A stretch of DNA of 61,740 nt, filler included, from Hausera hauseri (taxonomy: Eukaryota), in the NCBI GenBank assembly GCA_046269625.1. It is 12 parts of 12 records of this genome, joined end to end, with 100 filler letters (N's around TTAATTAATTAA, not from the genome) between each part and the next. Parts side by side here need not be neighbours in the genome. Positions count along the whole stretch, not along the records: positions 41,980 to 47,184 come from JBJURY010307721.1; positions 47,285 to 52,084 come from JBJURY010431805.1; 10 more parts are not named here. One strand, written 5' to 3'. Below the pieces are notes generated by a model. That model was given only the letters and a program-made list of their open reading frames with translations. It did no database searches and had not been told where the DNA came from. Below, one piece after another: positions 2,816 to 52,084 of this stretch. Position numbers and translations under genes: made by a program. How positions within the stretch are numbered: position 1 is the stretch's first letter; the number at the start of each line of letters is the position of its first letter.

Positions 2816-2999
2816 CGAACCGGAAGTATTGCAAAGCTGAAGAAGTGGTGTATGACGGTGATAAATTTTATTGTGGTGATTATTTTTAATTATTGAGAAA
2901 ATACCACTTAGGTATATATATGTGTATATAAATTTTTATCGTATTTCCTTTTAATCCCTGTCTTTGGTGTGAATTTAAAGCCACTTGAGTGAAGTAAAT

Positions 3000-4380
3000 A
3001 TGGAACAGGTACTTAATGCATATTCATTCTTCAAACCCCCAGAAGTGCTGTCATTTGAAGGAAATATTGCTGATAACTGGAAGAAGTGGTTGCAGAAATT
3101 TAAATTATATATGAAGGCTTCAGAAAGTGATAAAAAATCTGAAGAAGTACAGATTGCAATATTTTTGCATGTAATAGGAGATGAAGCACTTGAAAAGTTT
3201 AATACATTTGATATGAAAGAAGCAGATAAAGAAAAATTAGAAAGTATAATTAAGTATTTTAATGACTATTGTTTACCAAAGGATAACGAAAGTGTCAATA
3301 GACATATATTTTTTACAAGAGACCAAATTTCAACAGAGACATTTGATGAATATCTGACAAATTTACGAAAATTAAGTGTTTCGTGCGGCTTTGGAAATTT
3401 GAGAAATAGTCTGATTAGAGATCGACTATTAAGTGGTGTCAAAGATGAAAACCTACGTGAAAAACTGCTACGGGAAGAAGATTTGTCTCTGGAAAAATGT
3501 ATCAAAATATGCAAAGCAAAAGAACTGGCTGAATTACAGCTAAAGTCATTGTCTACTAGTAAAGGAATTGGAAATGTACAGAAGAAATATAACGGGGATA
3601 GAATTCTGCAAAAGAAAGGTTCTACAAAGCTGGAGCGATATGTTTCAAGACCTAGAATGATAAATGGAAATCATCCTCCCAACCGCCATTCGTTTGGAAG
3701 AAAAATGCCAGGTAGAGGTACAGACTTGAGTCAACAAGTGAATAAAGTACAGTGCCAGCGTTGTGGTAAGTACCACTTGAAATATAATTGTCCTGCTTTT
3801 AGTAGAATTTGTAATTTGTGTGGTAGAAAGGGTCATTATGCAGCGGTTTGCTGGAATAAAAAAATTCATAAAGTAAATTTTGATAAATCAAGTAGATTTG
3901 ACTCTGATTCAGGTAAAGCTCTTGTATTGAATACAGTGCATAATGTATATAATGTTTCATGTAATGACTGGCTGGAAAAGCTTATAGTTAATGATTCACA
4001 AACTTTATTGGCTAAATTAGACACCGGAGCTCAATGTAATGTTTTGCCTTTGAAAAAATATACTGAATTAGGTTTGAAAATGAGAGATTTAAAATATTCT
4101 TGTTTAAAATTAAGTAATTACAATGGATCTGGAATAGAGGTAAAGGGTCAGTGTATATTAAATTGCCAAACTGAAAAAGGTTTAAAGGTACCTATACAGT
4201 TTCAAGTTGTTCGTACAGCTTTAAATACTTTACCGGTATTAGGATTAAAAACAGTAGTGGCACTCAATTTAATTAAACGAGTTGAATTTGTTAAGGGTCA
4301 GGATTTCAATCAGACTGTTATAAAATATCTCTTAAAAAGGTTATCTTATTGCAAAAATATCACAATATTGTATTTGAGCC
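3000..4380 (+). CDS. gag: Ty3/Gypsy (Mag-like) Gag-protease, 3' truncated
   Basis: ATG at 3000; NWKKWLQKF..., LIRDRLLSG; two knuckles CQRCGKYHLKYNC and CNLCGRKGHYAAVC; protease LDTGA and VLGL. Confidence 0.9.
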
Positions 4381-4396
4381 ATATCACCCGCCCCTT

Positions 4397-4470
4397 ATAC
4401 ATACATACATACATATGTATATATATAGATACACACACACACATACATACATATATATACATACATACAT
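4397..4470. repeat. (ATAC/AC/AT)n microsatellite
   Basis: atacatacatac...acacacac tract at contig end. Confidence 0.85.
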
Positions 4471-13759: not shown

Positions 13760-15288
13760 CAGATTTAATTGTAACTAGATCTTGTGTATTAGATTTGTTT
13801 TTGGTATTGAAGTGGACTGAACAACACTTTGGGTGTGCTGGTACATTATACACTCGATCCGATAGTTACCATTATCTTTTGACCATAGATAACTATGTTG
13901 GCAGTCCAATATCCTACGGGGAAGGCAGTTTGTCCAAAAAGTGATGCGTTACCTATATCTGAAGGATTCGCTCGTTTTATCTCATGTTGATATTCTAATG
14001 GTACGATCATGTGTCGTATTAAGTTCATTGTTGCTCTTGGGTCGATTAAAGCCCTTATGTAATGGTTTCCTATGTATAGAGTAGTTCGGGGTCTTAAATC
14101 ATGCAGTTGAAGTATGGATTGAAGTTGTCTTTTAGTAGAATCTTCGACTACGGGTAGTAATGAATATACTCCAGCAGTTCTGACCACACCGTTTTCTACT
14201 ATAAATTTTTCATTATAGGGTAAATTAGTTGTATTGTTTTCTACTAAACTTGCAGTAGTTTGCAGTGGTGAGGTTGGTCAAGATAAAGTAAATGTCGGTG
14301 GAGATGCACATTTAGACATTATATCCGAACTCGCTTTCCATTTTTGTGATAGCGAAGTTAAATCGGGATATTGACTTGTTGGTCTAAGTTGCTCATTATC
14401 TAATGATTCAGTATGATTTGCAGCTTTTGACATAACCATTATTTTTTATAATAACCATGCTCACAGTAGGGATCCTTAATTTCCTTTCCAATTTTTTTGG
14501 TGATTAAAGGCAAATTCTGTATGTTTGTATTTGTCATAGGTAGTTCAGTGTAAGAATTATTCTCGATATTCATCATTGGTGGAAGTTTTGGTGGCGGTTT
14601 TTTCGTTTTATTTTCAAAGTTAACATGCTTTCTAATAGGTTTTTCCATCTTTTTTCTTCATGCGTCGTTAGTATTTTGCCAAACGATGTGAAGTCAGCGG
14701 ATAATATTTTCAATGAAAATACTGTAAGAGTGTAAATTTCATAATCATTTAGTAATGATGAAAGAATGGCTTTTGCTGTTTGAATGCTTAGATAGATGGT
14801 AAATATTCCGGCTGATAAAGTGCCAAATTTTATGAAACCTCCCAATAAGGTTTTTAGAAAGTTCATCGTAACTTCCTTATAGTGTTCTGGACTGAGTAAC
14901 TTTTCCAATCTTGCATCTTGAATTCCGTCATCTAATATGCGATGCAATGCTTTACTTAAAGCTTGTTCACTTTGAGCAGGGTATCTCAATTCTTGAATCA
15001 TATTGTTTATTTTGCCTCTAGTGTAGACAGTGGTTTTCGAAATGTCCGTGAACAAATTCTTTTGTACAGCATGTTTTAATGCAGTCATAGTGAGTCTTTT
15101 GGGAATTTTACATGGTTTCTTTCTTTTTGGTAATACTATCCAAGTACCAGCATTATCATATTTTATGTAGGGCACAGTTTATTATTTGAGTTAGCACAGT
15201 GTTTCTATCGGCATTACTCGGGTGATCGGTTATACATAACGAATTTCTTTTTTCTATATTACGGTAATTTCTACATAGCATTTCTTTT
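13760..15288 (-). pseudogene. Retroelement fragment: C-terminus of chuvirus-like glycoprotein followed by aspartic protease
   Basis: KCYVEITV..PITRV, GGFIKFGTLSAGIFTIYLSIQTAKAILSSLLNDYEIYTL..; downstream RPRTTLYIGNHYIRALIDPRATMNLI; homologous to 46850-48430. Confidence 0.8.
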
Positions 15289-21333: not shown

Positions 21334-24300
21334 ATACTGCAATTATTTCGAAAATATCGTGATGTTATAATTTTGAATGATAACAATATCGGTAGAACTG
21401 TCGTTATCCAACACCAGATAATCACAAAAAACAACTATCCCATCAAATAAAATCCGTATAGAATGGCCGAAGTTAAAAAGGAAAAATGTGGTCGACAAAT
21501 GGTACAAATGGTTGAACATGATATTATCAGACCAAGTTTTTCACCATGGACATCCCCAGTAGTATTTGTCAGAAAAAAGACGGAGAACAGTGATTTTTTG
21601 TAGATTTTACAGCATTAAATAATGTTACCAAGAAGGATAATTACCCATTACCAAAAATAGACAAAATGATCATAGCCTTAAGAAATACTGCAATATTCAT
21701 CACCCTCTATTTACAATGAGGATTTCGGCAAGTCGAAGTTGCGGAAAAAGATAAGAAAAAGACAGCCTTCTCTACCGAGATTGTATTATGGGAATTTAAC
21801 GTTATGCCCTTTGGCTTGAGGGGAGGACCAGCAACATTTCCAAGATGTATGAACTTTTAATGCAAGAAGTAATATGTTGTATGGTTTACATAGACGATGT
21901 AATAATATTCGTAGAAAATTTCAAACAACATTTAAAAGAAATATCACAAGTATTTGATAGGCTGAAACAGGCCCACTTGAAAATCAACTTGAAAAAATTT
22001 GAATTTGCCAAAAACACCGTAAATTTTCTTTGACACATAGTGTCAAGCAAAGGAATTCAACCTGACCCACGAAACGTGGATAAATTTAAGAAATTAAAGC
22101 CACCCAAATGTCTTTAGAAAAATGTATGAAAATGTATGAAATGTATGAAAATGTATGTTCTGTCCCACCAACACATGGGGAAGGAGTGTAATCGATAAAT
22201 CAATTTTGCACATGTGCCAATAGATAGTGCACATGGCGCACTATCGATCGGTAATGGCTAGGCGAAGGTGCCGTTAGGCACCGTTGCTATGCACATTTTC
22301 ACATTTCACAAATCGATCGCTGCACATTGCACAAATAATCTAATCGATCGGGACAAAGTGCTAATCGATAGTGCACATTAGTGAACATCGATTGGTGCAC
22401 AGAGCAGGGGCGCAACACGTGCAAGTGTGCCAAAATAAAAATACCCATTTTCCGGTAATGCAAATATTGATGATTGGCACATAGTACCGGGTGCAATCGA
22501 TTGGAAATACAATGTACTATGTAAATGTGCAATTAGAATTTAAATCGATCAAGGACATTTCGAATAATATCGATCCAAAGGGCAACTGAGGCAGACTTTC
22601 CATAGGTCTTTTAGGTCCCAACGAGTCAAAATTCGACAAATGTTTAAGCGGGAACAGATAGTAAGTGCACATTGTAACCCGGGTCTTCCATCTCAGATTT
22701 ATGAAATTCTGTGCACAACTCTAATAATTATCGATTTTCACCGAATAGTATCCATTACCTTGACACTTATAAATTTTTTGAGAAATCTGAGAGCGCCAAT
22801 CGATTTTCCATGTCTTAGTGCATCCATATAGCACTGTTCAGATGTGTAGCACGTGCAAGTATGCTTTAATCAATACTAACGGTTTTGCGATAAAACCTAT
22901 AAAGTTGATTTTAGAACGCGAGTAAGTGGAAATCGAAAAATCTAAAAGCGTACACACATAGAAACTAACATGTGCTGTATCCGCTTATGACATCAGATAT
23001 TTGAAAACTCGAATACAAGTGGAACTTTTAGAATAATTTATTTTCTTTTGGAATAAAAGCAAAAATCAAAAAATCTAAAAGCGTAGAGGGATAGAAATCA
23101 ATATACGAAGAATCCGAAAATGACGTCATATATTCGAAAAGAGGCTTAAATAAGAAAGCCGACTTTTCGATCGATTTCGAATATTCGAATAGTACCACCG
23201 GATTCCCCTTGTCCGAAAACATAGGAAATTCGTATATAACTTTGCAAGTATAGTTAAACCGCTAGTAGCATTAACTAAGAAAGGAACAATGTGGAATTAG
23301 GAAGAATCACACAAACGAGCATTCGAAGTTCTAAAGCAAGTCCTAACTTCACCACCAATACGACAATTTCCTGACCCTAAATATCCATATACAATAATGA
23401 CAGATGCCAGCGGCTATGCTATTGGAGCAGTCCAAGGACAATCTTTTCCAGATAGACCATGCGAAAGAATAATACATGCCTCAGCAAAATTCGGAGCGAA
23501 ACGCAACGCACATAATCAACAATCCAGCGTAAATGCTATGCAATAGTATATTCATTAATATATTTTAGATATTATATAACTGGGCGAGAAATAATCCTAC
23601 ACACCGATCAAAAATCATTACAATGGTTAATGAAACAACGAGATACCAGCCGAAAATTAATGAAATGGGCTGCGGAAATTCAAGACTTAGATATCTCAGT
23701 AAAATGCCGACAAGGAATGGCAAACCCAATGCGAATTTTCTATCAAGACTTCAAGAAAATGATATCGACCAAAGCTATAACGATTGCATAAATCCCCATT
23801 ACGATGATATGCAGGACTTAAGAAAATATTATTCGCAAACAATTCACCCAGATGTACGTAAAGCAATATGAAGAAAACTCACCAAGAATGCAAACCATTT
23901 AATAAGTATGACTATTCAAACATAGAAAAAAGATAACCAACAGAACGCAAGACAAAGTGACTATAAAAACCCATGTGTTGAAAACATCTAATATGAACAT
24001 TACAAAATGATTGACCCAATTTAGACCATGATAAACGAAGTAGATAACGTAGAAGTCAACGAAGAGGTGCACATATTTCTGTCCATACCAATTACGCACG
24101 AAGCCATAACCAAAAAACAAGCAAAGTATGAAGAAATTCGGAAAATCCGTAATAATCTAAACAAAGAAGGGCGAAAAATAAATATAAAATGGATAGGGGA
24201 AATATCTACTATCAAGAGAGCAAAGACTCATGGTTGTACCAAAACATATGCACGCAAAACGTCTACTACACGACCATGACGGACAACTTGGCGGACACCG

Positions 24301-25340
24301 AGGTTATAAAACTAGTATTATTGGCCAAAGATAGCAGGTGACGTAAAAGACTGGTGCACAAATTGTCAAGTATGCTCAAAAAGATGAGGAAAATTTCACG
24401 TAAGAAAAACACCATTAAAACTCTGTACCAGTTTTAGCAACACCCTTCGTCTGCATAGGTGTAGATGTAGTAAGACCATTACCAACCACTGCCATATAAA
24501 ACACATGCGTATTGACAGCAATAGACTACTACTCAAATTTACCGATAGCGATGCCAAATGCTAATTAAACCACGGATGTTATGGCCGAAAGATTAGAAGA
24601 TGACGCAGCAATTGAATATGGAGTGCCATTTACAGTAACATTTAACAGAGAAAGCAATTTATGCAGTGAACTTATGGCAAAAGTACTAGCAATATTATGA
24701 ATTATTCACAAATTTGCTTCACCCTATCATACTTAAGTCAATGGTGCGGTGCAAGCCTTTAATAAACAATTTTCAATTATGATATCTAGTTACGCATATA
24801 ATCATCCAGCTTATTGGGATCTGTATATAAAACCCTTTGTATATGCCTGCTGACAAAGCCCTCATACAGCAACTGTAGAGTCACCATTCTTTTACTATAT
24901 GGTAGACGCAATATCATGCCAGTTGACCTGGAGTATAGACCGTCGCAATAACAACTAATGGAAGAAACCGAATATGGAACAATTTTACAAGAAAGATTAC
25001 AAGAAGCATGGATCAGAGCCGGATTAAAAATTAAATACCACCAAGAAAATTATAAGAATCAATATTATAAGAAGGCCAAACCCCATGTATATTGAATTGG
25101 AGACTAATTCAACATATTGGATGAAATCTGTAAATCGCATGAAAGCCCAAAACTGAAATTACCCTATAAAGGACCACATAAAATACTACAAATAACCGAA
25201 TCAGACTTGAAACTACAAAATTTATCCAACCCTAATAAAACCTCTTGGATGAGTGGACAGCGATGTAGACCAGTAGCTAAGGAACGCAAGCTGGAACAAG
25301 CACCACCTTGTAAATACCAATTAAGAAGTAGAATGCAATT
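21334..25340 (+). pseudogene. pol: Ty3/Gypsy pol (RT, RNase H, integrase), heavily decayed, interrupted at ~22113-23220
   Basis: SFSPWTSPVV, EFNVMPFGL, VYIDDVII, TDASGYAIGAV, NANFLSRL, HDGQLGGHRG, GVDVV, PYKGPHKI. Confidence 0.88.
22113..23220. repeat. Non-coding interspersed repeat inserted in pol, starting with (AAATGTATG)n
   Basis: Interrupts the RT/RNase H connection; 22190-22980 is collinear with 27760-28565. Confidence 0.7.
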
Positions 25341-25379
25341 ATATGACAAGAATACAATGGTCGCATTCATGGACGACGG

Positions 25380-25720
25380 ATCGAACAATAGAGTAACCAC
25401 AACCGTAACCATAAGCAAAGTCAAAATAGAAGCAATAGTAGATGCAGAAGCAGCAAAAAATTATTTAAGTAAAACTACGATGGAGACACTAAAATTGAAA
25501 TTGACCGAAAACAGTGAAATCAATCACAAGTTAATAAACGGAAACCAATTGAGAGTAATAGGCGTAATCACAGCCTTAACTAAATTAAATGGGAAACGTT
25601 CAAAGATCCTGTATCACATACTAGAAAATATTACAATTCCCTGTATTATAGGTCGAGGTACGCTAATAGATTATGATACAGTGGTAGATGTAGCTACGAA
25701 TTCACTGGAAAAAAAACAAA
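25380..25720 (+). CDS. Retropepsin-like domain downstream of integrase (degenerate active site)
   Basis: VTISKVKIEAIVDAEAAKNYLS...INGNQLRVIG...PCIIGRGTL, in frame with the integrase GPY/F motif in ORF 25117-25749. Confidence 0.65.
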
Positions 25721-27509
25721 AGATTAGGACAAATACCGAAAAAATATAAATGAATTGGAAGACGAAATAAAAAGGTTTGAACTGCTATATAACATGCACT
25801 ACAGTCAAAGTGATAACGATTATCCCCTTTTGACACCAATATTGGTCAGAGTATATAGTAATTATGTTAATGCGGAACTTTATCCCACAAACCCATTGAC
25901 TCGTATAAACCTACGGTTATAAATACGAATTACCCATTATATACCCTAAGCTGGTGGTAAATTAAACCTAACTATAGGATATATAGATGTTATTTGTTTT
26001 GCCAACCCACAAGAGTCGTATTCTAATCTCACTATTGGTTTAGATGTACTATAAAAGTTAATTGGAGCAGAACTCAAAGTCATCTCTCGATCTAACGTAT
26101 TCAACGGCGATGGCTACCAAGATAAAAAACCTGAACCTAATGATCACTGGTGGTTCGCGTCGGGAAAAGAGAATGTTCCACCCTCATTAAACTATGTTAC
26201 TTTAAATCAAACTACCGAACAAAATACAGAATCTACAGTAGCCCGGGAAATAATGCAAACCCGAGTAGCAGAAACACCCTCAGCTAATACTCCAAGAGCG
26301 ATTTTTGGAACTCCCTTTAATTTTTCTACCATAACCTTGATAACCTTAATACTATTCATAATACTTAGATACGCAAACACCCAACCAACCCAAACAACTA
26401 CTACAACTGACTCCTGGATTAGTACAGTGGTATTATTGCTAATATTTGTATATTAAATATTCCAAAATAGTACTACATGCGATGAAGAAGAAACAGATAA
26501 CCTCTTTTCGAATGATCATACAAGAAGACAAGTACCCCTACCTTCAGTAGTTAATGCGGACACATATTCAGTATCTAACGTAACGAGTATCCCAAAGAAA
26601 TTACCACAAAACTCTTCACGCGATATATCAAGAACTACATCGACAGCTTCTATGTATGTTTGACCTAACAGGAGTACAAACGACGAGCCAAGTCCACGCA
26701 CCTACAAGTTATACAACCATAAGTAAAAATTATAAGAAGCAGAGAAGAATATCAGACTCATAAGAAAGGAAACTAAAAGGTACCAGCCTGATAAAACCAA
26801 GAAACTCCCAGTAAATCATAAACCTAAATCAATGAGATCGGATCACGTTGAAAGAGCATAACACAAAGAAACCAAACCATTAGAACAAAATTATGCTGAA
26901 CTACGCCAACAAAAAGGAAAAAGTCTACCACCATTTCCTTTAACGCAAGAGGCTGCAAATCGACATCGATTATAGAATTTCCTACTGGTCACCCCAGAAC
27001 GTATTAATTATGCTCAAGAACTAGTTCAAGGGATCCATAAATCGTGTAGCGGAATTAAGAGATTTTTTCGTTAAGTATCATGAAAAATGGGGGATAACAG
27101 ATGAACAATATAGGCCCATANNNNNNNNNNNNNNNNNNNNNNNNNNNNNNNNNNNNNNNNNNNNTTAATTAATTAANNNNNNNNNNNNNNNNNNNNNNNN
27201 NNNNNNNNNNNNNNNNNNNNTAGCATAATTACGGATTCATGCATGCTTGTATGTGAGCAAGGCTTACCTTGGATTTTGTTTAAACTAATCAATTTTCAAA
27301 TTATGTGGCAAGTTCATACAGTTGATGCACTAAAACAAAGGTACAAATGCGGTATGTTGGCAATACAAGTGCAACATGTTGGCAACAATATGCTGTACTG
27401 AATTTACCCTACCATTAAAATTATTTATTTCCCCTTACATTTGTGTTTTGTTTTACTGTATCAATTATCAAATTCAAATAAAAATAGACAGCTAACGAGA
27501 ATCTGGTAT

Positions 27510-27759: not shown

Positions 27760-28565
27760 AACCACCGCGGGTTGCACCGAGTGCTAATCGATAATGTACA
27801 GTGCCAATCCATAGTGTTCTGGGTGCACTATTGATGGGCATAATTTGGTATCGATCGAGCACATCGGAACCGTTTCCATAGCGGTTTTGTGAAAAGTGCA
27901 AATCGACCGTTTCACGATGCAGTATTGATCGAATCGATCAGACCAAAGTGCTAATCGATAGAGCACAGTGCGAACATTGATTATCACAGTGAAGGTGTGC
28001 AGCACATGTGGAAATGGGTGCAAATCAATAATAACGGTTTTCCGATAATTCCAATATTGATGATTGGCACATTTTGAAAGTGCAGTTCGATCAAATAAAG
28101 TGTGCTCTATTCTACTGTGAAATTACAATTTAAATTTATCGTCCCGTTTTCAAATAGTATCGATTCAAGATTTCACTAATGGAGAGTAGCCATAGGCCTT
28201 CACAGCCAGGGGAAGCAAAATTCGACAAATTTTTAAGCGTGGACACAAAGGAAATCCCACATGTTTACCCGGACCACTATCTCAGTTTTCCAAAATTCGG
28301 TGAACAACTCTAATAAATGTCGATTTTCACAGAATAATATCGAATATCTTGACAACCATAAATTATTCGAACAACTTGAGAGCGCCATTCGATTACCCAT
28401 ATGTGAATACATCTACAGAGGAATTTTCACATGTGTCGTACATGTGCAAGTGTGCCTTATTCAATAATAACGGTTTTTCGATAAAACCTATAAAGTTGAT
28501 TTTAACACACAAGGAAGTGGATATCAAAAAATGTAAAAGCGCACACATATAGAAACTATTATGTG
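27760..28565. repeat. Second copy of the ATCGAT/GTGCAC-rich interspersed repeat
   Basis: Shared blocks such as caaagtgctaatcgatag, aaattcgacaaat, cgataaaacctataaagttgatttt. Confidence 0.75.
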
Positions 28566-41879: not shown

Positions 41880-44789
41880 NNNNNNNNNNNNNNNNNNNNN
41901 NNNNNNNNNNNNNNNNNNNNNNNTTAATTAATTAANNNNNNNNNNNNNNNNNNNNNNNNNNNNNNNNNNNNNNNNNNNNAGTGTATCATTTGCAGAGACT
42001 AGTAAAGCTAGCACAATAAAAGATAATTTGGAAGGAATCTACGGAAAACGAGGTGATATAAGTATGATTATCGAGATGCAGGACTTACGAAGATATGTGA
42101 AAAATATGGGCGAATCTAATAATCCACAAGTAATCAAGGCAAGGAAGGAGTACGAAGAGAAGCCGCAGCAAATGGAGGTTTATCATGGGTTGAGAGAACC
42201 AAAAACGGAGTACGAAAAAATTATAGCACATACTAACATGGACAGGAAGAAAAATCTAAATCAAGCAGCGAAAGAGGAGAAGGAAGAAAAACCGACTACG
42301 TCTTCAAGTGTAGACTTGGACGCAGATACCGAAATCGTGTCTCAAAATAAAGAAAAAACAACGGACGAAGTTGAAAATGAATTCATTGGGACAATAATAG
42401 AGGTAGAAGCCCCTCCCTTAGGAGAAGGTCGGGAACTCGTTCACGATCCCCTATTAAAAAGGTTGTAGAAAAGGAGGAAGACTTCACCATCACTTTAAGA
42501 GACGAAACAGAGTTAAATACCCCTGTAATAACTCAAGACGTTCCGGAAACAACAAATATTTCATATATTGATGAAAGTAATGAAATATGTCCGTTAACAT
42601 TTAGCGAAGAGGAATCAGAAGAGGAAAAGTCTATAAAATTTGGGAAAATGAGAAAATATTGGAAAAATGCAAGCGAACTAACCAAAACAAGAGACGTACT
42701 GAATGATCCCGAAAGGCTACCGGAAAGCTTACAGAAACTCCAGAAGATGAGCAAACAGTTAGATATCTCCGGAAAAGAACAACAATTCATAGAGAATCTA
42801 TATAAAAAGCTTAAACCCGGTTCTCAGAAGAAGGACGAAAACACACCTTACAAACTGCAAGAAACGCCACAAGACTTGATAGAAAGTTGGCGAAATAAAT
42901 TAGAATTGTGGACAAGGAGTGAAATTGATTTTTCGAAAATATGGTGGAATAGAAACGAGCCATTTCTCGAGCAAGTTAATCAAGCACGCGGATTATTAAG
43001 CATATTAAAGGATAACCCAAAACTAAAACACGTAAGACGTAATTTAGAAGGGTTAATATGAGATAGAAAAGGCGATACTTTCTTACCTCCATAACAAGCT
43101 AGGATACGAACTGACCAATGCCGACTTAGAGATATTGGGTATAGACCCAATCGATATTCCACCTCTAATAGCAATGTGCAGCCTGATAAGAGATAACTCT
43201 CGGAAATATCCAGATTTTAAAATTTGGATGGAAAGAGAAGACGAAATACGAACCAAAATTAACGACTGTAAAATCGGTGTAGTTCACCCGGAAAGAACAG
43301 AAGCACAGAGAATAATACGTGCTTGTCTTCTCGAATTAGACGAGTATAAAGAAGAATTCAACTACATGAAGCATATTATAGAATTTGTACGAGGGCCAGA
43401 TCACGAACTAAAAGAAGCCCTTGAGATATTAGATGAAATAATCTACACCAAACCGGCAATATCCAAACAACTAAAGAAGTGAATTGACTTGTTACCTTTA
43501 ATAGTAGGGATAGTAAACGAAAGACTAAGAGAATTCACCGTGGTTGAGCCCACAATGAGGCACCAATTGGAGGAAATGTTGCTGGATATCGGTACGATGG
43601 AAGATGAAGCGAAATTACGAACTAAATTCGAATTATTTCGAGAACGTGAATTTATGAGCAGGGATCAAGAGCGAACAACATTAACAGCGATATATAGTAT
43701 GATAGAAGAAAAGGAGTTCTACAGAAAAAGAAGCAAGCTAAGTGATCTTCAGCGGAGTTTAGCGAACATCCGTTGAGAAGGGATACAGAACCTAATGCAG
43801 AAACCGTTGAAAGAAATCTCAGCACAGGAAATAGAAACATTAGAAGTATGTAACGATCACCGAATTGCTCTGGCGCAAACACTACAATATCTACAGAATC
43901 CAGCAGAATGGACACCAGGTTTCGACCTACATTGCCACACCGAACTAACGGAAATTCGGAAGGATCTTCAGTTGACTGCCGACGAATCTAAGTTCATAGG
44001 CAGGCTAATGGATGCAATAGATCCGGACGCTGAAGTATTAAATCAAATGCACAAATTAATCCTACTATTAACAGAAATGGCAGAAATTGACGAAGTAGTA
44101 GCCAGACGACTGACGAATCAAATACGCTCGATAAAAGAGACTCGGTTACGTTCCGAGAAAAGACAGCGCGAACTAAATGAATTGCTGAGAGAAACAGAAG
44201 TTTACAAGAACAAGTATTCCTTTACGGAATCTGAAATGAATGACAAAACGGAATTTATAGAGATGGCAAAGAGACAGAATCGCAGAAATGACTAGTTATC
44301 AGGAGAAAGCCCTAATACAACCAGAAGAAATGTGCCGATTAATAACATTGATACAACAAGCGTGCGAAAATAAAGACGGATTTAGGATGTCCGTAATGAA
44401 AACATTGCAATCGCAGATAAGATAATTACGAGAGAGAGTCCAAGTCGGACAGGCGGCACTAATGAACTACAAGTTACCTGACGCGGATAATGATGCCGAG
44501 TGGGATGAATATTTCCAAGGTCTAACCAAGAAAAGTCCAAGAACTCCGATACAAATTTATGAGTCACCAACTGGTGTGCAGAAAACGAAATTTGATGTGC
44601 AAATGTTACTTGATCCCACGCTAGCTGAAAAGGAATTAAGCAGTATGTTGAAAATAAACAAGCGAAGATAAGTTAAGGAAATTGATTCCGACCTTGACTA
44701 AGCTATTCAGCGAAAATATCGCATACAGCGCCGTACCCAAGCTCTTAATAAGAGAGTACGCCAAACTATTGAAAAATAAACCGGAAGCT

Positions 44790-45010
44790 TAAATTAAAGT
44801 GAAAGTATCGTCTGAAGGAATGGATGACGAGGAATTTGAATGCACTACCTATACCACCGTTTGGGACATAAAACAGCGGATAATGGATAAGGGTGGTAGG
44901 GAAGGGGTTAATTACCGACTCTACTTCAGAGGTAGGATATTAGATGATCTAGAATTTCTAATAGACGTAGGGATTATACCACTCGAAGCGAACCAAATAA
45001 TAGCCATAAT
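44790..45010 (+). CDS. Ubiquitin-like domain within the element polyprotein
   Basis: TTVWDIKQRIMDKGGREGVNYRLYFRGRILDDLEFLIDVGI fits the Ubl pattern T(I/V)..(V/I)K..I....G......RL.(F/Y).G+.L.D...L.D.GI. Confidence 0.7.
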
Positions 45011-45191
45011 CGACAGCGAGCAAACCAAAGATGAAGCCATGAGAAAGGCACATACAGAACATTGTGTTGGGAAAATCATGGGGATCCAAGATGCCGCAAT
45101 GTATTTCGAATACTTACAGACTGATGATGAAAAACCGCAGTACGATAGGAACTTAGTCCCCCTAAGCGAAACCTTACCACCAATAAAAGCG

Positions 45192-45218
45192 AAACGACCG
45201 GTCGGAAGACCGAGAAAG
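45192..45218 (+). CDS. AT-hook motif
   Basis: KRPVGRPRK. Confidence 0.65.
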
Positions 45219-45710
45219 ATAAAAGAAATTGATTATAATGTAGATATGATTAGAGAATTGAGACAACTATTGGTACCAACCCCGAGTTCAGATAACGACG
45301 AACTAATTGAGCTAATGAAAGACCTAATCAGGTTAGTCAGCTACACTGGACTCCAAGGCGACATATTATCTGAAAAAGAAAGATTAATATATAATATAGT
45401 TCGGACAATGAAGACTTCGCGATTCAAATAATCGAAAAGCACCCTTCCTGACGAAACCGTAATCGACAGAATTATGATAGACAATACGATGGAAGAATTA
45501 AGGAAAGTCTTAATATATTTAGCGGTAAGAACTAACCCTCTCCGGGAAAACGAATTTGACAAGACAATTGTGTTAGCTAGAAAAGCTGCGAGAAGGGTAC
45601 CTAAGGAAATAAAATGGACTAAATTATTTGAAAAACAGGACAATGCGAAAAGGACCAATAACTTAGAGGACATAGTACGAAACATCTCTTCGAGAAAAGG
45701 GAACGAATTG

Positions 45711-47460
45711 ATTTGGTTAATCAGTCTACTAACTATAATGATGTTAGTGAAGCAGATGGGAGCAGTCACCATATACGACTGTGAAAATTTAAAGTGGGCC
45801 AGAAATATTCCTTGATGGACTTAGAAACATGTGAGGATGCGAGGTCCCACAAGCTCCAGACAATAGAGAAGAGATATATATTATATCAACAACGTGAGTT
45901 AATTGCAATGGATGCAACAGAATGCATGATAAATAGGTCTCGCTGCATATTTCATTGTGGTAATATGCACGGCCATTCTTCAATAATCAAACCTACCACA
46001 CCATTGATACCAATGAACGTGGATATGCAACATTGCTTAGGAGCCCGGTCAACCGGCAAAATGGTTTGGGACAGCATGGAATTGGAAGCCCAAGAAGGAA
46101 AAATAATTAGAGCCTACTAAGTGGCAGTAGGAAAATTGAACATTCACACCGGTTATTGTGTTGGGGAAGAATATGACACAAGGAAGGGAATAGAAGGAGG
46201 AATTAGTCGTAGATTTTTATGAAACCGAGTTAAGATCCTTAAAAGCGATGTTTCATAACGTTACCAAACTATTCAGCGAAAATCAGAAATGTCACATTCA
46301 TGATGGTGCTTGCACGTTCCGAATTTTGGTTATCGTATGGAATCCACCCTCCAAGATGGATTGCAATTTCATCAAAATCAGAGTTAAAATTTAATGAGAC
46401 CATGGGAAGCGTTATTCGAGCAATTTACATACTAATACCAGGTCAAGAGAAGATGTAATAGAACAATCCACACCGACGATATTAATATCAGACGTGCACG
46501 GGTTAAAATTTATTAGAAAGTTTATGTTATCACGTTGCGATGTAGTTATGTATGCCACTAACTACGAAATATTTTTTGTAGCAGAAACAGAAATCGACTT
46601 GAAAACGTATGATTTAAAAACACAAGGTGTGCGGATTGAGGCTTACCTCAAAAACCGAGACGACTATTTCTATTACAAAGGGTAGACCGGAATAGCGGAA
46701 CTATATCACAAAATGATAAGAAATGACTGCAGATTAGACCTGAAGTCATAAGAACTAAACTGGCTTTAATTTACGCCAAACCAGAATTGGCATCACCAAT
46801 TATTCCAATGAAAGACGGTGTTTTCGGGCGAGTTACAGGAGAAGTCCTATTAACTTACGAATGTGAGAAAAGAGACGTACCAATCAACTTAGAGGAGAAA
46901 ATATGCATGCAAGAATTACCCGTCATCTATGAGATTATGCCGAGATTAGCGATGCCACTCACCAGAGTATTATTGGCGAACTCAACCGAACCAACGATGC
47001 TGAAGGAATGTAAAACGAGCTTAGGCCAACCAAGGTTTAGACGAAGTGGAACCGATTGGATAACTCTACCAAATGGAGGTACGGCCGCAGCCCCTAGTAA
47101 ACTAACCGGGACAAATCTAATCAAAGGATTATCGGAAGATAAATTCGAAGATACAGCTAATAAAGGAATTTATAGGCCAAAAGANNNNNNNNNNNNNNNN
47201 NNNNNNNNNNNNNNNNNNNNNNNNNNNNTTAATTAATTAANNNNNNNNNNNNNNNNNNNNNNNNNNNNNNNNNNNNNNNNNNNNGGATTCTTAGCCATCT
47301 ACTTCTTAGTCCAGTTAATTAAAGCAGTGATCCAAGCTATTATAAACGGATATGAAATATTCACCTTGACAGGATTGTCTTGCAAACTTTTGACCGCAAT
47401 TATCACAACCTTTGGAAAAATTCTTAAGGTTTACAAAGAAAATCGCTGGAAAAATGAAGT
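45711..47460 (+). pseudogene. env: Chuvirus-like (class III/gB-like) envelope glycoprotein with signal peptide and C-terminal TM
   Basis: LIWLISLLTIMML..AVTIYDC, YSLMDLETC, LYQ, ECMINRSRCIFHCGNMHGHSSI, GYCVG, C...DGAC, GEVLLTYEC, CMQELPV..MPLTRVL, KGIY, TM GFLAIYFLVQLIKAVIQAIINGYEI. Confidence 0.78.
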
Positions 47461-48109
47461 AGAACGCCACGTCGGGTGTTATAACCGCAAATGCCGAGGG
47501 AGGTTTTTGATTTTGTATAGACGTAAAAATAAGTCAACAGTAACACGAAAGGATAATTCAGATGATGACGAGCCTAAGGGAGGAGAAGTGAGATCTAGAA
47601 TGAAGATGCACAATATGTACTCAGTGATTAACGCGCTGTTACCTACAATGCCGCCAACAGCACCAATATGTGAAGACTGCGACCGCAAATTAATCACACC
47701 ATGTAGATCAGAAATCTATCAAAAGCCCATTAATTATGAAGATCCTTATAAGAAGAAAAAACAATATGTAGTACTACGGAAAATGAATATTATCAACCAA
47801 AGACCTACAGAGAACAACCATGGAATATTGTACTCAAAAAGAATACCGCGCCACATAGAATCGAAATCAACGATCTGGGAAAAACCGAAACTGTGTTCGA
47901 TCTCGGGCTAACTACCTCAGGAACCGCTAATTAGCAGTCGCGTCAATGAGACGGCAAATAATAATTTATACCCAAACAGAGAATTAAGACAGTTAAGAGA
48001 AAATATTTTCTCATCGCCAGAAATAACGATAAACGGACACAGTCTCTACTATAAAACGGTCAAAGATAGCGTCAAATTGCTAAGGAACAGCAGCAGAAAG
48101 GAGACCCTT

Positions 48110-51100
48110 CGCTAAAATACACATCGAAGATTTGGAAGTGTATTTATTAATCGACACAGGATCGCAAACATTATTTATAAAATATGACTCTATACCAACC
48201 ACATTGCGAGATCAGCTATGTCCGCTATTATCGTCAGATCCTGGTAGCGTAGGAGCATTTGGGCAAGTATCGAAGCCGAAATTTAAATGGACTCCTACTG
48301 TTCATATGATGGGCCAAGCGCTCCAACATAAATTTGCGATAATGGACCAGTTAACAAATGATGTAGTACTAGATTGTGATATATTGAAACAGATACCAGG
48401 CATAGCAATCGATGTGCATAACGGAAAATTAATTGACCTCGAACCAATAAAAGGGACAAAAGTAATAAAGGAAAGGAAATGGGGCGAAGTATGGATTCCG
48501 GTAGATGAAGACATTCCGCCCAGAACTAAAATGATAATTATCGCACAAATTCGTCAAGACAAAGACCTACCAGTATATTCGAACCTTAAGAGAATATCGA
48601 TCCAAACCTTATGTTTAGCAATATCTTATGTATATTAGTGACGGGAAGAATACCCAGCGGACTAATTAACAATGCAACAATTCCGGTAAGATTTCACGCT
48701 AACACTACTTTAGGTAACACTTGCAGAGTATCAGAAGTAACGATATAGGAAAAGCCGTATAAGTGAGCTGAATTTCCGCCCTACGTTAAAACCAAACTCT
48801 CTCCTGAGGCATATTGCAAGTTCTACAAATTACTATGTTAATACCGTTAAATAATTGCGCAAAATGAGGAAGACATAGGCAGAGCAAAGGCCCTGAGATT
48901 AACAATCCCATTAAGAAAGAAACCATGCTCGAATGACAAAATCAATCTAGAAGAACAGAAAATGCCCAAATGGTACCCACTTCCTCATTCATTAAGACCG
49001 GAGATAACCAAAGAATTAGAGCGAATGTTAAAGGCCGATATAATTCGCCCAAGCTACCGATCGTGGTATTCACCTATACTTATGGTTAAGAAGAAAGGAA
49101 CCACGAAACATCGGTTTTGTATAGATTATCGCGCATTAAACACACTGATGATGAAAGACTCGTTCCCTCTACCATCAGTAAAGGAAGCTTTAGACAAACT
49201 ATCAGGAACAAAATGGTTCACCACTCTCGACTTACAATCGGAATATTGGCAAGCGGAAATCGAAGAAGAAGATCGATATAAGACAGAGTTTAAGACACAC
49301 GATGGCGTATACGAATTTAATGTTATGTCCTTCGGCATCACCACAGGACCAGCTATTTTTACTAGAATGATGAATAAGATGCTCATGGGACTTGATCATG
49401 CTTTCGCATATTTAGGCGACGTAATGATAGCATCAAAACAGAGGAAGAACACTTAAAAGACATTGAAAATACACTCATGTAACTGGAACAAGCAGGGTTG
49501 AAACTAAATTTAAAGAAATGTAAATGGGCACGGAACGCAGTATCGTACCTCAGACACATAGTTGGAGAAGGAGGATCAAAACCGGATAAATCCCTGCTAA
49601 ATAAAGTAGCCGATTGTATGGAACCGCAAAATCAAAAAGAGTTAAGACACTTGTTAGGCCTATGTGGGTATTACGCCACTTACGTACCGGATAATTCTAA
49701 AATTAACGCACCACTATACCGCTACTCAAAAAAGGAACTAAGTGGAGATGGACGGAAGTGGAGCAAAAAGCATTCAATGAAATAAAGAAAATTTTGACAA
49801 GCGACCCAGTTTTTAGAAACCCTGATTTTAACCTACTATTTATCATTAAAACCTATGCAAGTAAAAAAGGTATAGGATATGAACTAGCTCAGAAACTAGA
49901 AGATGAAGAACTAGAACACCCAAAAGCCTATTGAGGACGCTCATTAAAGAAAGCAGAAAAGAATTATTCGGTTACTAAATTAGAAACGTTAGCCGTAAAG
50001 GAAGCACTACGACACTTTAACGTTTATGTCTATGGAGAGAAGATTATAATAGTGACCGATCACAAAGCAGTTACGACATTGAAAGGATGATCTAATAACC
50101 AAACATGTAGATTAAACCGTTTGATAGAGAAAATCTCACAATATAGCATTGAATTCTAATACAAACTAGGCACTAAACACGTCGACGCAGACGCACTATC
50201 AAGGTTAAAGACAAAAACCAGTGGGATTATTACAGCGAAGAAAACGCAACTCGAACAAATAGTTGAACATCAAAGAACTCTAACCCTGGATAAAACGATC
50301 AGGACCACCGCAGAGCAGGCTAAAGATAAGATTATTCAGTAAATTGTTGAATTCACACAAAACGGCAAAATACCCAAAGGACGGCAACTGAAGAAGCATC
50401 TGAAGAAACACGGACACAAATACAGCGCATCGAATTAAGATAATATCCTATATTATGAACGAAAAGGAAAAAGACTAATAGTTATTCCAAAAGAATTAGG
50501 CGTCGAAGTAGTCATGGCTGAACATGATTCGTATTTAGCTGGACACATGTCTTGGAAGAAGACATTGGAAAGGATATTAAATAGATACTATTGGCAAAGC
50601 ATTTACATCGATGTAAAGAATTGGGTAGGTGCTTGCGAAGTTTGCGCGACAAAACAAAAGGAAACGAAAGGCTACGTAGCGGAATTAAAACCCATAAACG
50701 TACCAGATAGGCCCATGCAAGCTATGTTTATGGATATAGTGGGACCTTTGCCTAAAACTCACAAAAATGACATATATTTTAACATGCGTGGATCAATTAA
50801 CACACTTCGTCGAACTAGTGGCACTACTAGATTAAAGGCAGAAACTTTAGCCAACGCAGTGGTAAGAAAAATCATCTGCAGATATGGATTACCAGAACAA
50901 ACCTTACCGGATAGAGGAAGAAACTTCACAAGTGAATGATTCGAAAAAATTACTAAGATATTCGAAATCGAACGATTAACTACTACCGCGTATCACCCCC
51001 AATGTAATGGAATGGTCGAGCGAATGAACGCAACAGTCATTCGAATACTATCAACAGTAGTGATCAAAGACCAAAAGGATTGGGACGAATTCCTAGAAAG

Positions 51101-51135
51101 AACACAGTTTACAATCAATACTACACCACATCCAA
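48110..51135 (+). pseudogene. pol: Ty3/Gypsy pol: protease, RT, RNase H, integrase
   Basis: LIDTGS; WYSPILMVKKK, RFCIDYRALN, LDLQSEYWQ, YEFNVMSFG, YLGD (from YLDD); NYSVTKLETLA, TDHK, DADALSRL; HDSYLAGH..CEVC, MDIVGPLP, DRGRNF, YHPQCNGMVER. Confidence 0.92.
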
Positions 51136-51139
51136 CGAC

Positions 51140-52084
51140 CCATTAAAACGGATGCTAGAAGAAAATATAGCTAGTATAACAAAAAACCCAAAGGATAACT
51201 GTATCCAAATAAACACAAAAGGACGGTTGATTAAAGGACGAGTAATCACAGTTCAATTCATAAGGGATGACAAATCAACTCATAATCAACAGTAACGTCA
51301 AACTGACGTCGAAAAGCCGAATAAATGTTGAAAGTTATCTCAGAGATATAGATATAAAATCCGGTTAGACTTATATGAAGTTCGACTGAACCAGTCGAGT
51401 ATTTACCTAGGAAGTTATCAATTGGAAAATCCAATTTGGGGAATTCTGCCTAAGACGAAAACAAGCAAAATTACGACTACAAAAACAAATACAACCACGT
51501 CTACATCCACCAAAATCGTCCAAACGAGTGGATTACCTCAGAAGAATCTAGAAATGATTCCTATAAAATATTGGACGCAACAATATGAAATAACGTTCAT
51601 TGTGGAAGAAGCACTGAATTACGACGTAAAAATAAGCTGCCGAACATTATACAACAATCAGAAAGTGACACTGGCTAAAGGAAGCCATCGAATTAAATGC
51701 ACCTACTTAGAACCCAAAACAGACTACATAATACAAATAGGTGCAGAAAATAAACAAAGTAAAACGTTTACGGTTCGCTACCTAAACGAGATTGTCTTAA
51801 CGAAACCATTAACTAACGAGGAAACAAAAGATGAAATTACGACTACCGCTAAAACGAAAAAACTAAATAGACAACTTTGTCATTAATATAGATTGTTGGA
51901 ACGTCAACGTTTGCTCTCATAATTTTTATTGCACTTTGCCGATTGATTACCAAAAATTGTTACAGTAATCGTCACAAAATCAACGAGAGGGAATTAAGGG
52001 TGATGATACCGAAGGATGAAATCAATGATGGAATAACCTGACAGTTACAGATAGAGTTATTCCGCCATCAAACAAAGAATTGGT
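51140..52084 (+). pseudogene. Putative type I membrane protein: FN3-like domain(s), Thr-rich stalks, TM, cytoplasmic tail
   Basis: CTYLEPKTDYIIQIGAEN (FN3 L.P.T.Y...V.A.N signature); TKTSKITTTKTNTTTSTST; LSLI*IVGTSTFALIIFIALC-RLITK. Confidence 0.55.

Follow-up and report, generated by a model that had tools for sequence, protein, structure and literature searches.

A decayed Ty3/gypsy element of Hausera hauseri with an internal signal-peptide-like segment before a class III envelope gene, and its predicted polyprotein topology

In retroviruses and long terminal repeat (LTR) elements, the enzymes normally enter the particle as a Gag-Pol fusion. A stretch of 61,740 nucleotides of Hausera hauseri DNA (GCA_046269625.1; hereafter the window, meaning the whole stretch) raised the question of how Pol would be packaged by an element in which an envelope gene (env), preceded by a hydrophobic segment in frame, stands before pol. 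The locus was identified as a Ty3/gypsy element of high copy number, here in decay, whose class III fusion gene stands before pol; it was spread over two pieces of the window (41980-47184 and 47285-52084). Its order was ubiquitin-like domain (UBL), AT-hook, signal, class III (chuvirus/gB-type) Env, transmembrane segment (TM), protease (PR), then reverse transcriptase (RT), RNase H (RH) and integrase (IN), and the order PR-RT-RH-IN was of the Ty3/gypsy type (Pfam; Table 1).

The sequence-only reading had described two open reading frames (ORF; 44799-45431 and 45474-45815) in the same frame and one TAA apart. This was borne out: stop-free stretches spanned 44793-45428 and 45432-45812 in a shared frame with a single TAA (45429-45431) between them, and GTG 44799 and ATG 45474 taken as starts reproduced the ORF coordinates. 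The hydrophobic segment, likewise as described, lay within this frame and not at a fresh start. Its core, LIWLISLLTIMML at 45708-45746 (Kyte-Doolittle 2.6 over 13 residues), was followed at 45759-45782 by GAVTIYDC, with the predicted cut between GA and VTIYDC; the Ala at -1 was typical. The nearest in-frame ATGs upstream of the core stood at 45474 (78 codons) and 45489 (73 codons), and because these were at least 73 codons away the signal was internal regardless of TAA 45429. An Env profile of eight natural relatives matched the window from profile position 4 at 45705, and so included the core; the matching position was an N-terminal signal peptide in stand-alone homologues. The signal frame terminated at TGA 45813. 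The ectodomain resumed in another frame from about 45785, just behind YDC, and was interrupted by more stops and shifts of frame on its way to the contig end.

A phmmer search of 1.84 billion representatives with the window Env frame, read with X, gave 64 matches (13 of at least 1000 residues), the best of which were long single ORFs; one match, P0047, was an unrelated Kelch/Ig protein and was rejected. The domain scan covered 19 relatives: the best or longest of the 64 matches supplied 18, and P0067 came from a cluster look-up (P0006 and P0067 belong to one cluster). Their sources were ENA contigs and one misfiled bacterial bin; the ORF starts were gene-caller choices and the ORF continuity was not. 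A protease followed Env in the same ORF in 12 of the 19, and Env-PR-RT-RH-IN stood in one ORF in five (P0004, P0005, P0018, P0022, P0067), with P0020 extending to RH. A Gag marker was found upstream in the ORF of four (P0009, P0013, P0016, P0018; two matches below the Pfam cut-off), and in P0018 a single ORF combined the Gag knuckle with Env and Pol. P0004 was collinear with window 45791-51140 (23-39% identity), and the window RT was 41-47% identical to that of six Env-Pol relatives. The complete Env-Pol polyprotein P0004 (HBK71150.1) is filed under a Flavobacteriaceae metagenome-assembled genome, a bacterial bin into which animal DNA has likely strayed.

A usable [YF]DC motif was present in 37 rows. 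In 15 of them (the window frame and 14 relatives, two from one cluster) it was preceded by a hydrophobic core and stood more than 90 residues into the ORF; in 22 shorter matches it fell within the first 90 residues, mostly directly behind an N-terminal signal. Among the relatives with an internal motif, residue -3 was small in 14 of 14 and residue -1 in 13 of 14. Since stand-alone homologues carry the segment as an N-terminal signal, the internal segment would be the glycoprotein's own signal peptide, internalised by fusion.

Behind the signal, PF24664 matched with profile positions 37-163 and 340-480 and, past the linker between the two pieces, 553-609; the Env profile covered positions 4-502 of 629 up to the contig end and resumed at 569. 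Env of five relatives held 14 Cys and 1-3 N-glycosylation sites each. Topology was read from hydropathy and charge only, in 14 of 15 rows (P0021, with no anchor motif match, was left out). The main anchor scored -0.9 to +3.9 kcal/mol and the hydrophobic stretch that follows it +2.2 to +8.1 kcal/mol; as a membrane helix the second stretch was worse by at least 3 kcal/mol in 13 of the 14 rows, with 2-7 K/R in the next 20 residues. A single membrane pass with a cytosolic tail appeared to be the better reading for the Env anchor. No strong hydrophobic segment was found from anchor to RT in P0004, P0005, P0018 and P0022, and P0067 had a signal and anchor pair between the Env anchor and RT that, read by eye, would keep RT cytosolic.

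The working form of the element was read, with a probability of roughly 0.7, as one polyprotein that is cut at the internal signal and whose Env is predicted to carry PR-RT-RH-IN on a cytosolic tail. The sequence-only reading had proposed this series of a cytosolic N-terminal part, internal signal, luminal fusogen, anchor and cytosolic PR-RT-RH-IN. The single-ORF layout of unbroken relatives spoke for it; the Env-Pol tether was unreadable from this copy alone, because stop 47909 and a frame change lay between TM and protease. Translation would start in the cytosol, and the internal signal would direct the fusogen into the lumen of the endoplasmic reticulum (ER). Host signal peptidase would cut three residues before YDC and leave an N-terminal piece and Env; the fusogen would fold in the lumen, the anchor would stop transfer, and all of Pol would remain cytosolic. 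TAA 45429 and the breaks behind it would be decay. Where Gag shares the ORF, the cut would fall between Gag and Env, no Gag-Pol fusion would be possible, and Pol would therefore have to reach the particle otherwise. Most simply, Env-Pol might gather at the budding membrane, where the element's protease would free the enzymes in or at the particle. This route, in which the tail of Env delivers Pol, was favoured tentatively, at somewhat under even odds, over early release with RNA-mediated packaging. No paper on Env-tethered Pol, topology or signal-peptidase processing of these elements was found in a search outside which most of the subscription literature lay.

Foamy-virus Pol is packaged by binding genomic RNA or Gag. 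With the same polyprotein and topology, the protease of the present element might cut Pol off the Env tail already at the ER, Pol then being packaged via genomic RNA or Gag, and this was held to be quite possible. Env trimers would presumably unite three proteases early, and one ORF would yield equimolar Gag, Env and Pol, far more Pol than a particle needs. The relatives had 1-6 protease-like DTG motifs and 118-654 residues from the anchor to the first DTG; because both varied, the spacing between anchor and protease was not conserved. Against early release, a tether would be a direct route where a Gag-Pol fusion is impossible. As a separate observation, P0067, P0009 and P0005 carried up to six protease-like DTG motifs per polyprotein.

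The one-polyprotein reading also met with observations that weighed against it, concerning the linker, the stop, the signal and the anchor. The pieces of the window (4-6.5 kb each) were chained by 11 identical 100-base linkers, N44-TTAATTAATTAA-N44 (stops in six frames), and neighbourhood across any of them was an assembly claim. Because one linker separated them, the Env ectodomain and the anchor with Pol lay on different contigs; in a highly repeated family these may come from different copies, and the locus may be an assembly mosaic, which was considered unlikely but not negligible. Only about 66 Env residues were missing, the two pieces were collinear with this gap in register by the Env profile, and both were A-rich on the + strand (A 0.39). 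Even in a mosaic, the order Env-anchor-PR would hold on the right contig and in a second copy in the window (15178-13849, - strand). The Env C-terminus and anchor thus stood upstream of PR on a single contig in two copies, and env before pol was independent of the linker because the second copy had Env-TM-PR on one contig. In the repeat comparison within the window no repeat pair flanked the element, both ends of which were contig edges.

It was judged improbable that TAA 45429 is a real end and Env-Pol a second ORF from ATG 45474 or 45489, with a leader of 73-78 residues (spliced or internally initiated RNA, or read-through). In-frame ATGs did follow the TAA by 15-20 codons, and Tor env RNA arises by splicing or from an internal promoter (PMC4402516). 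Five relatives (P0003, P0005, P0006, P0007, P0067) began 126-188 residues before the signal without Gag, and some lineages may therefore have Gag in an ORF of its own; these starts were, however, chosen by gene callers. For the frame from UBL to signal, no protein spanning the TAA was found among 1304 candidates at E 0.001, and none was found for Env read with X among 2043 candidates in a search of longer proteins; both were word-index searches, and as such weak evidence. Alignment of the same UBL-to-signal frame to P0013, P0021 and P0009 by blastp did not cross the stop. The Met at -3 of the predicted cleavage site was atypical.

By contrast, the UBL and AT-hook upstream of the stop lay in the signal's ORF in relatives. 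The UBL matched a module carried there by four of them (P0004, P0009, P0013, P0021): a profile of these, for which the regions were picked by eye, matched 44856-45005 with 13.6 bits, a score that none of 500 shuffles reached. The GRP[RK] core of the KRPVGRPRK motif, which we take to be AT-hook-like, preceded the signal both here and in 4 of 14 relatives. Stop density was similar throughout this copy. A public run, X1, contained 0.37 of the sampled words (one study, which may be the window's own source) and had 11010 contigs on 41980-47184, across all 30 bins, of which 673 were at ≥99% identity, 1910 at 95-99%, 4370 at 90-95% and 4057 under 90%. Of the 1072 differing places 40 were listed, and four of these coincided with stop codons of the present copy (43774, 44790, 46118, 46683); there, almost the whole depth disagreed with the window. 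TAA 45429 was not among the 40. Where the signal frame gives way to the ectodomain frame, five X1 contigs were of a different length. Since the four stops and this break differed in other X1 contigs, the breaks were not general in the family. TAA 45429 was probably decay of this copy.

The membrane-insertion scale was position-independent, and the second hydrophobic stretch of the window, the one exception among the scored rows, scored like its contig-truncated anchor (2.2 vs 2.5). A two-helix hairpin as Env anchor, with protease and Pol luminal or the fusion non-functional, was nevertheless very improbable. For it, a second stretch stood behind the anchor in all 14 scored rows, and gB-type ectodomains are noted as flanked by two TM segments, though with one per side (PMC13524379). 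Against it, the second stretch had Lys/Arg and Pro and the unfavourable scores given above, RT and integrase must be cytosolic, and multi-copy elements of this layout exist (Smed_errantivirus_2, 215 copies; PMC13524379).

Behind the integrase, all four relatives that reached that far had a second signal-like segment and then hydrophobic segments (P0004 2259/2545, P0005 2486/2724, P0022 2780, P0067 4363/4710), and in three of the four the intervening part was rich in beta structure and came with an anchor and a Thr-rich linker or stalk. In the window, 51332-51939 held no second signal behind the integrase, despite a weakly matching fibronectin-III-like ORF and a hydrophobic segment. The domain at 51614-51778 appeared weakly homologous to the relatives' post-integrase domain, and the C-terminal part of the integrase was not found behind 50484-51140. 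In a fuller version, Env-before-Pol elements would be enveloped retro-transcribing viruses lacking any Gag-Pol fusion: signal peptidase would part Gag from Env-Pol, Pol would enter the particle as the tail of the spike, and a second signal behind integrase would make Pol a membrane-bound loop and add a fibronectin-III-like surface protein (attachment or immune decoy) beside the class III fusogen. This version was considered rather doubtful. In P0067, ankyrin repeats and C2H2 fingers were present as well, and a short cassette of signal and anchor came before the last pre-RT protease. Elsewhere in the window (21334-27120, + strand), another decayed gypsy element had a protease-like ORF (25108-25746) and, behind its integrase, a hydrophobic segment (26055-26453), which resembled the post-integrase cargo of Env-Pol relatives.

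Table 1. Positions of the features of the element and of two further loci in the window.
Feature	Position	Strand	Basis
Helix-rich polyprotein region, several broken frames, starting at contig edge	41980..44792	+	Frame reading
Ubiquitin-like domain	44799..45005	+	Pfam PF00240 E 4.2e-5, 23.7 bits, below 25.4 cut-off
AT-hook-like motif KRPVGRPRK	45192..45218	+	Sequence inspection
In-frame TAA, probably decay	45429..45431	+	Frame reading of this copy
Helical spacer where some relatives have a Bcl-2-like domain	45432..45707	+	Fold, pLDDT (predicted local distance difference test) under 50
Signal-peptide-like segment, internal; cleavage predicted between 45764 and 45765	45708..45764	+	Hydropathy, relatives' [YF]DC comparison, Env profile
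Ectodomain of class III fusion glycoprotein (Monjiviricetes_fusion), interrupted by stops and frame changes, truncated at contig end	45765..47184	+	PF24664 E 2.5e-19 and 1.1e-7; Env profile 4-502 of 629
Artificial linker	47185..47284	.	About 66 Env residues missing; Env profile jumps from 502 to 569
End of Env membrane anchor and second, weaker hydrophobic stretch	47285..47420	+	PF24664 553-609 E 3.2e-8; hydropathy
Basic, low-order tail, anchor to protease; stop 47909 and frame change	47421..48095	+	Frame reading
Aspartic protease, DTG at 48153	48096..48395	+	PF00077 E 9.2e-4; tblastn to P0005, P0067
Spacer, possible dUTPase-like fold	48566..48720	+	Weak: 3.1 bits to profile of five relatives
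Reverse transcriptase core, catalytic motif not intact in this copy	49085..49447	+	PF00078 E 2e-21
RNase H, with stops	49749..50144	+	PF17919 E 8.9e-30, PF17917 E 6.3e-26
Integrase zinc finger and core	50484..51140	+	PF17921 E 1.7e-16, PF00665 E 2.7e-4
Fibronectin-III-like domain behind integrase	51614..51778	+	fn3 E 0.069, Pur_ac_phosph_N E 0.014; 11.5 bits, highest score among 500 shuffles 11.2
Hydrophobic segment, possible anchor of post-integrase domain, other frame	51892..51939	+	Hydropathy
Second, diverged, broken copy: Env C-terminus, anchor, tail, protease on one contig	13849..15178	-	PF24664 433-609 E 1.5e-19, PF00077 E 8.7e-4
Intron-free CCT6 (TCP-1 zeta) piece, 365 codons	53878..54972	-	Pfam E 1.9e-79

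The region 41980-44792 showed no capsid or zinc knuckle and no Pfam match under E 0.01; a Gag profile (four relatives) was silent there, yet matched two other elements of the window. An upstream-helical profile was no better on the window than on shuffles (36 of 500 reached the real score). On the spacer before the signal, a Bcl-2-like profile (four relatives) scored -0.5 bits, with 100 of 500 shuffles as good, and Pfam gave no match. MATH, BIR and ankyrin had no Pfam match in the frames scanned of the approximately 10 kb between contig edges. Single-sequence folds of two window proteins were of unusable quality (mean pLDDT 35.7 and 33.8), and the UBL alone had about 70. The profile behind the spacer between PR and RT (48566-48720) had a dUTPase as its best PDB match (E 0.52, weak). 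In P0013 the order was knuckle, ubiquitin (weak Pfam match), Bcl-2-like, signal and Env. A Bcl-2-like domain stood directly before the internal signal in P0003 (52-113), P0007 (9-70) and P0013 (651-748; Pfam E 0.2, 0.001 and 0.055, respectively).

The host was likely a flatworm, as judged from the CCT6 piece, which was likely a retro-copied piece of a host gene. Its best named matches were cestodes and trematodes (62-65%; long branch). In a tree of 35 of 120 matches, the CCT6 piece joined two sequences (100/100) in a group of 17 rows (98/96) that included every named flatworm of the set and stood apart from the molluscs, annelids and deuterostomes and from the one nematode; the set was without a named free-living flatworm or planarian. 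A nematode host, the first guess, was rejected on the CCT6 matches and this grouping.

Other elements were present in the window. A linker was flanked by several direct repeats (22309-22974 and 27899-28565) that were 69-229 nt long, 74-86% identical and separated by about 5.6 kb, and there was an insertion within the gypsy element at 21-27 kb. An RNase H-integrase frame (417-2291, + strand; 625 aa) was followed by the Gag-protease of the next LTR element (2979-4469, + strand; 497 aa), and a third Gag, with a zinc knuckle, lay at a contig end (7451-8671, + strand).

The single-polyprotein layout is already published, for planarian Burro (2019) and for GAG-ENV-POL errantiviruses (2026). Burro, or GYPSM1, elements are giant gypsy-like elements (>25 kb) of planarians with env in frame between gag and pol, and they carry Ubi/SUMO-like, Bcl-2-like (just before env), MATH, BIR, ankyrin and dUTPase-like (between PR and RT) domains (PMC6431247). 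The present locus was like Burro in its Ubi/SUMO-like domain upstream of env, in an env related to mononegaviral fusion glycoproteins and followed by PR-RT-RH-IN, and in a probable flatworm host with thousands of copies, some decayed (PMC6431247). Env in frame between gag and pol in one polyprotein was seen in a relative (P0018), the copy in the window being broken. Unlike Burro, this copy had no Bcl-2-like match (weak in P0003, P0007 and P0013). MATH, BIR and ankyrin gave no match in the roughly 10 kb between contig edges; ankyrin, a Burro feature, was found in the relative P0067. The review section on Burro is silent on signal peptides, topology, packaging and a post-integrase anchored domain (PMC6431247). 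Because a Bcl-2-like domain was not found, and the full extent, Gag and LTRs would lie beyond the contig edges, the locus was considered Burro-like and was not filed as Burro.

[quoted passage not shown] Chary and Hayashi describe such elements in Nematoda, Bryozoa and Platyhelminthes, with nine from flatworms (Macrostomum, Prostheceraeus, Schmidtea; up to 215 copies), and their gB-type ectodomains are flanked by a signal and a TM or by two TMs (PMC13524379). The Ty3/gypsy Pol and the gB-type class III Env before pol were shared with the present locus (PMC13524379). That paper covers intact elements and ORF order, and the word 'polyprotein' is absent from its main text (PMC13524379); the copy in the window was decayed. 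Gag upstream of env, a feature of errantiviruses, was found in 4 of the 19 relatives, and no gag was matched in 41980-44792, which begins at a contig edge.

Nematode endogenous retroviruses with a continuous gag-env-pro-pol ORF were reportedly described by Sacco et al. in 2022 from chromadorean hosts. Chary and Hayashi cite Sacco 2022 for the nematode elements, and among 30 of the 36 nematode rows of the eLife table all were Chromadorea (PMC13524379). The present locus resembled these retroviruses, as cited there, in having env before pol in a metavirus and a glycoprotein derived from an RNA virus (PMC13524379). It differed in its host, likely a flatworm, with the window CCT6 away from the nematode row.

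Flavivirus and alphavirus polyproteins use internal signals and anchors to place parts of a single chain on either side of the ER membrane, and they are cut by host signalase together with a viral protease; the flavivirus enzymes come after the envelope. The flavivirus/alphavirus-like topology claimed from the sequence stood as an analogy of processing and failed as kinship, the fusogen being class III (PF24664) and not class II. There is no homology. Those viruses have class II fusogens, and their enzymes stay out of the particle, whereas RT and IN have to enter it.

With a layout already on record and a dead copy, the locus itself adds little. Testable predictions for living planarian members follow from the topology argument and from the second anchored domain, the one past integrase. 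An in-frame signal between Gag and Pol would exclude Gag-Pol packaging, and Burro and the flatworm, nematode and bryozoan GAG-ENV-POL class would therefore need another solution for Pol packaging and the Gag:Pol ratio. Among other elements compared, Troyka was rejected, having no env (PMC12440569), as was Tor as a family, with env behind pol (PMC4402516). Atlas virus is alike in that Env lies inside one Gag-Pol-Env polyprotein, and unlike in being BEL/Pao, with env behind pol and a class II Env (bioRxiv 10.64898/2026.03.22.711591). Anakin is alike in carrying a chuvirus-type glycoprotein in an LTR element, and unlike in being BEL/Pao with env behind pol (PMC7642597). With env behind pol in both Atlas and Anakin, Gag-Pol stays fused.

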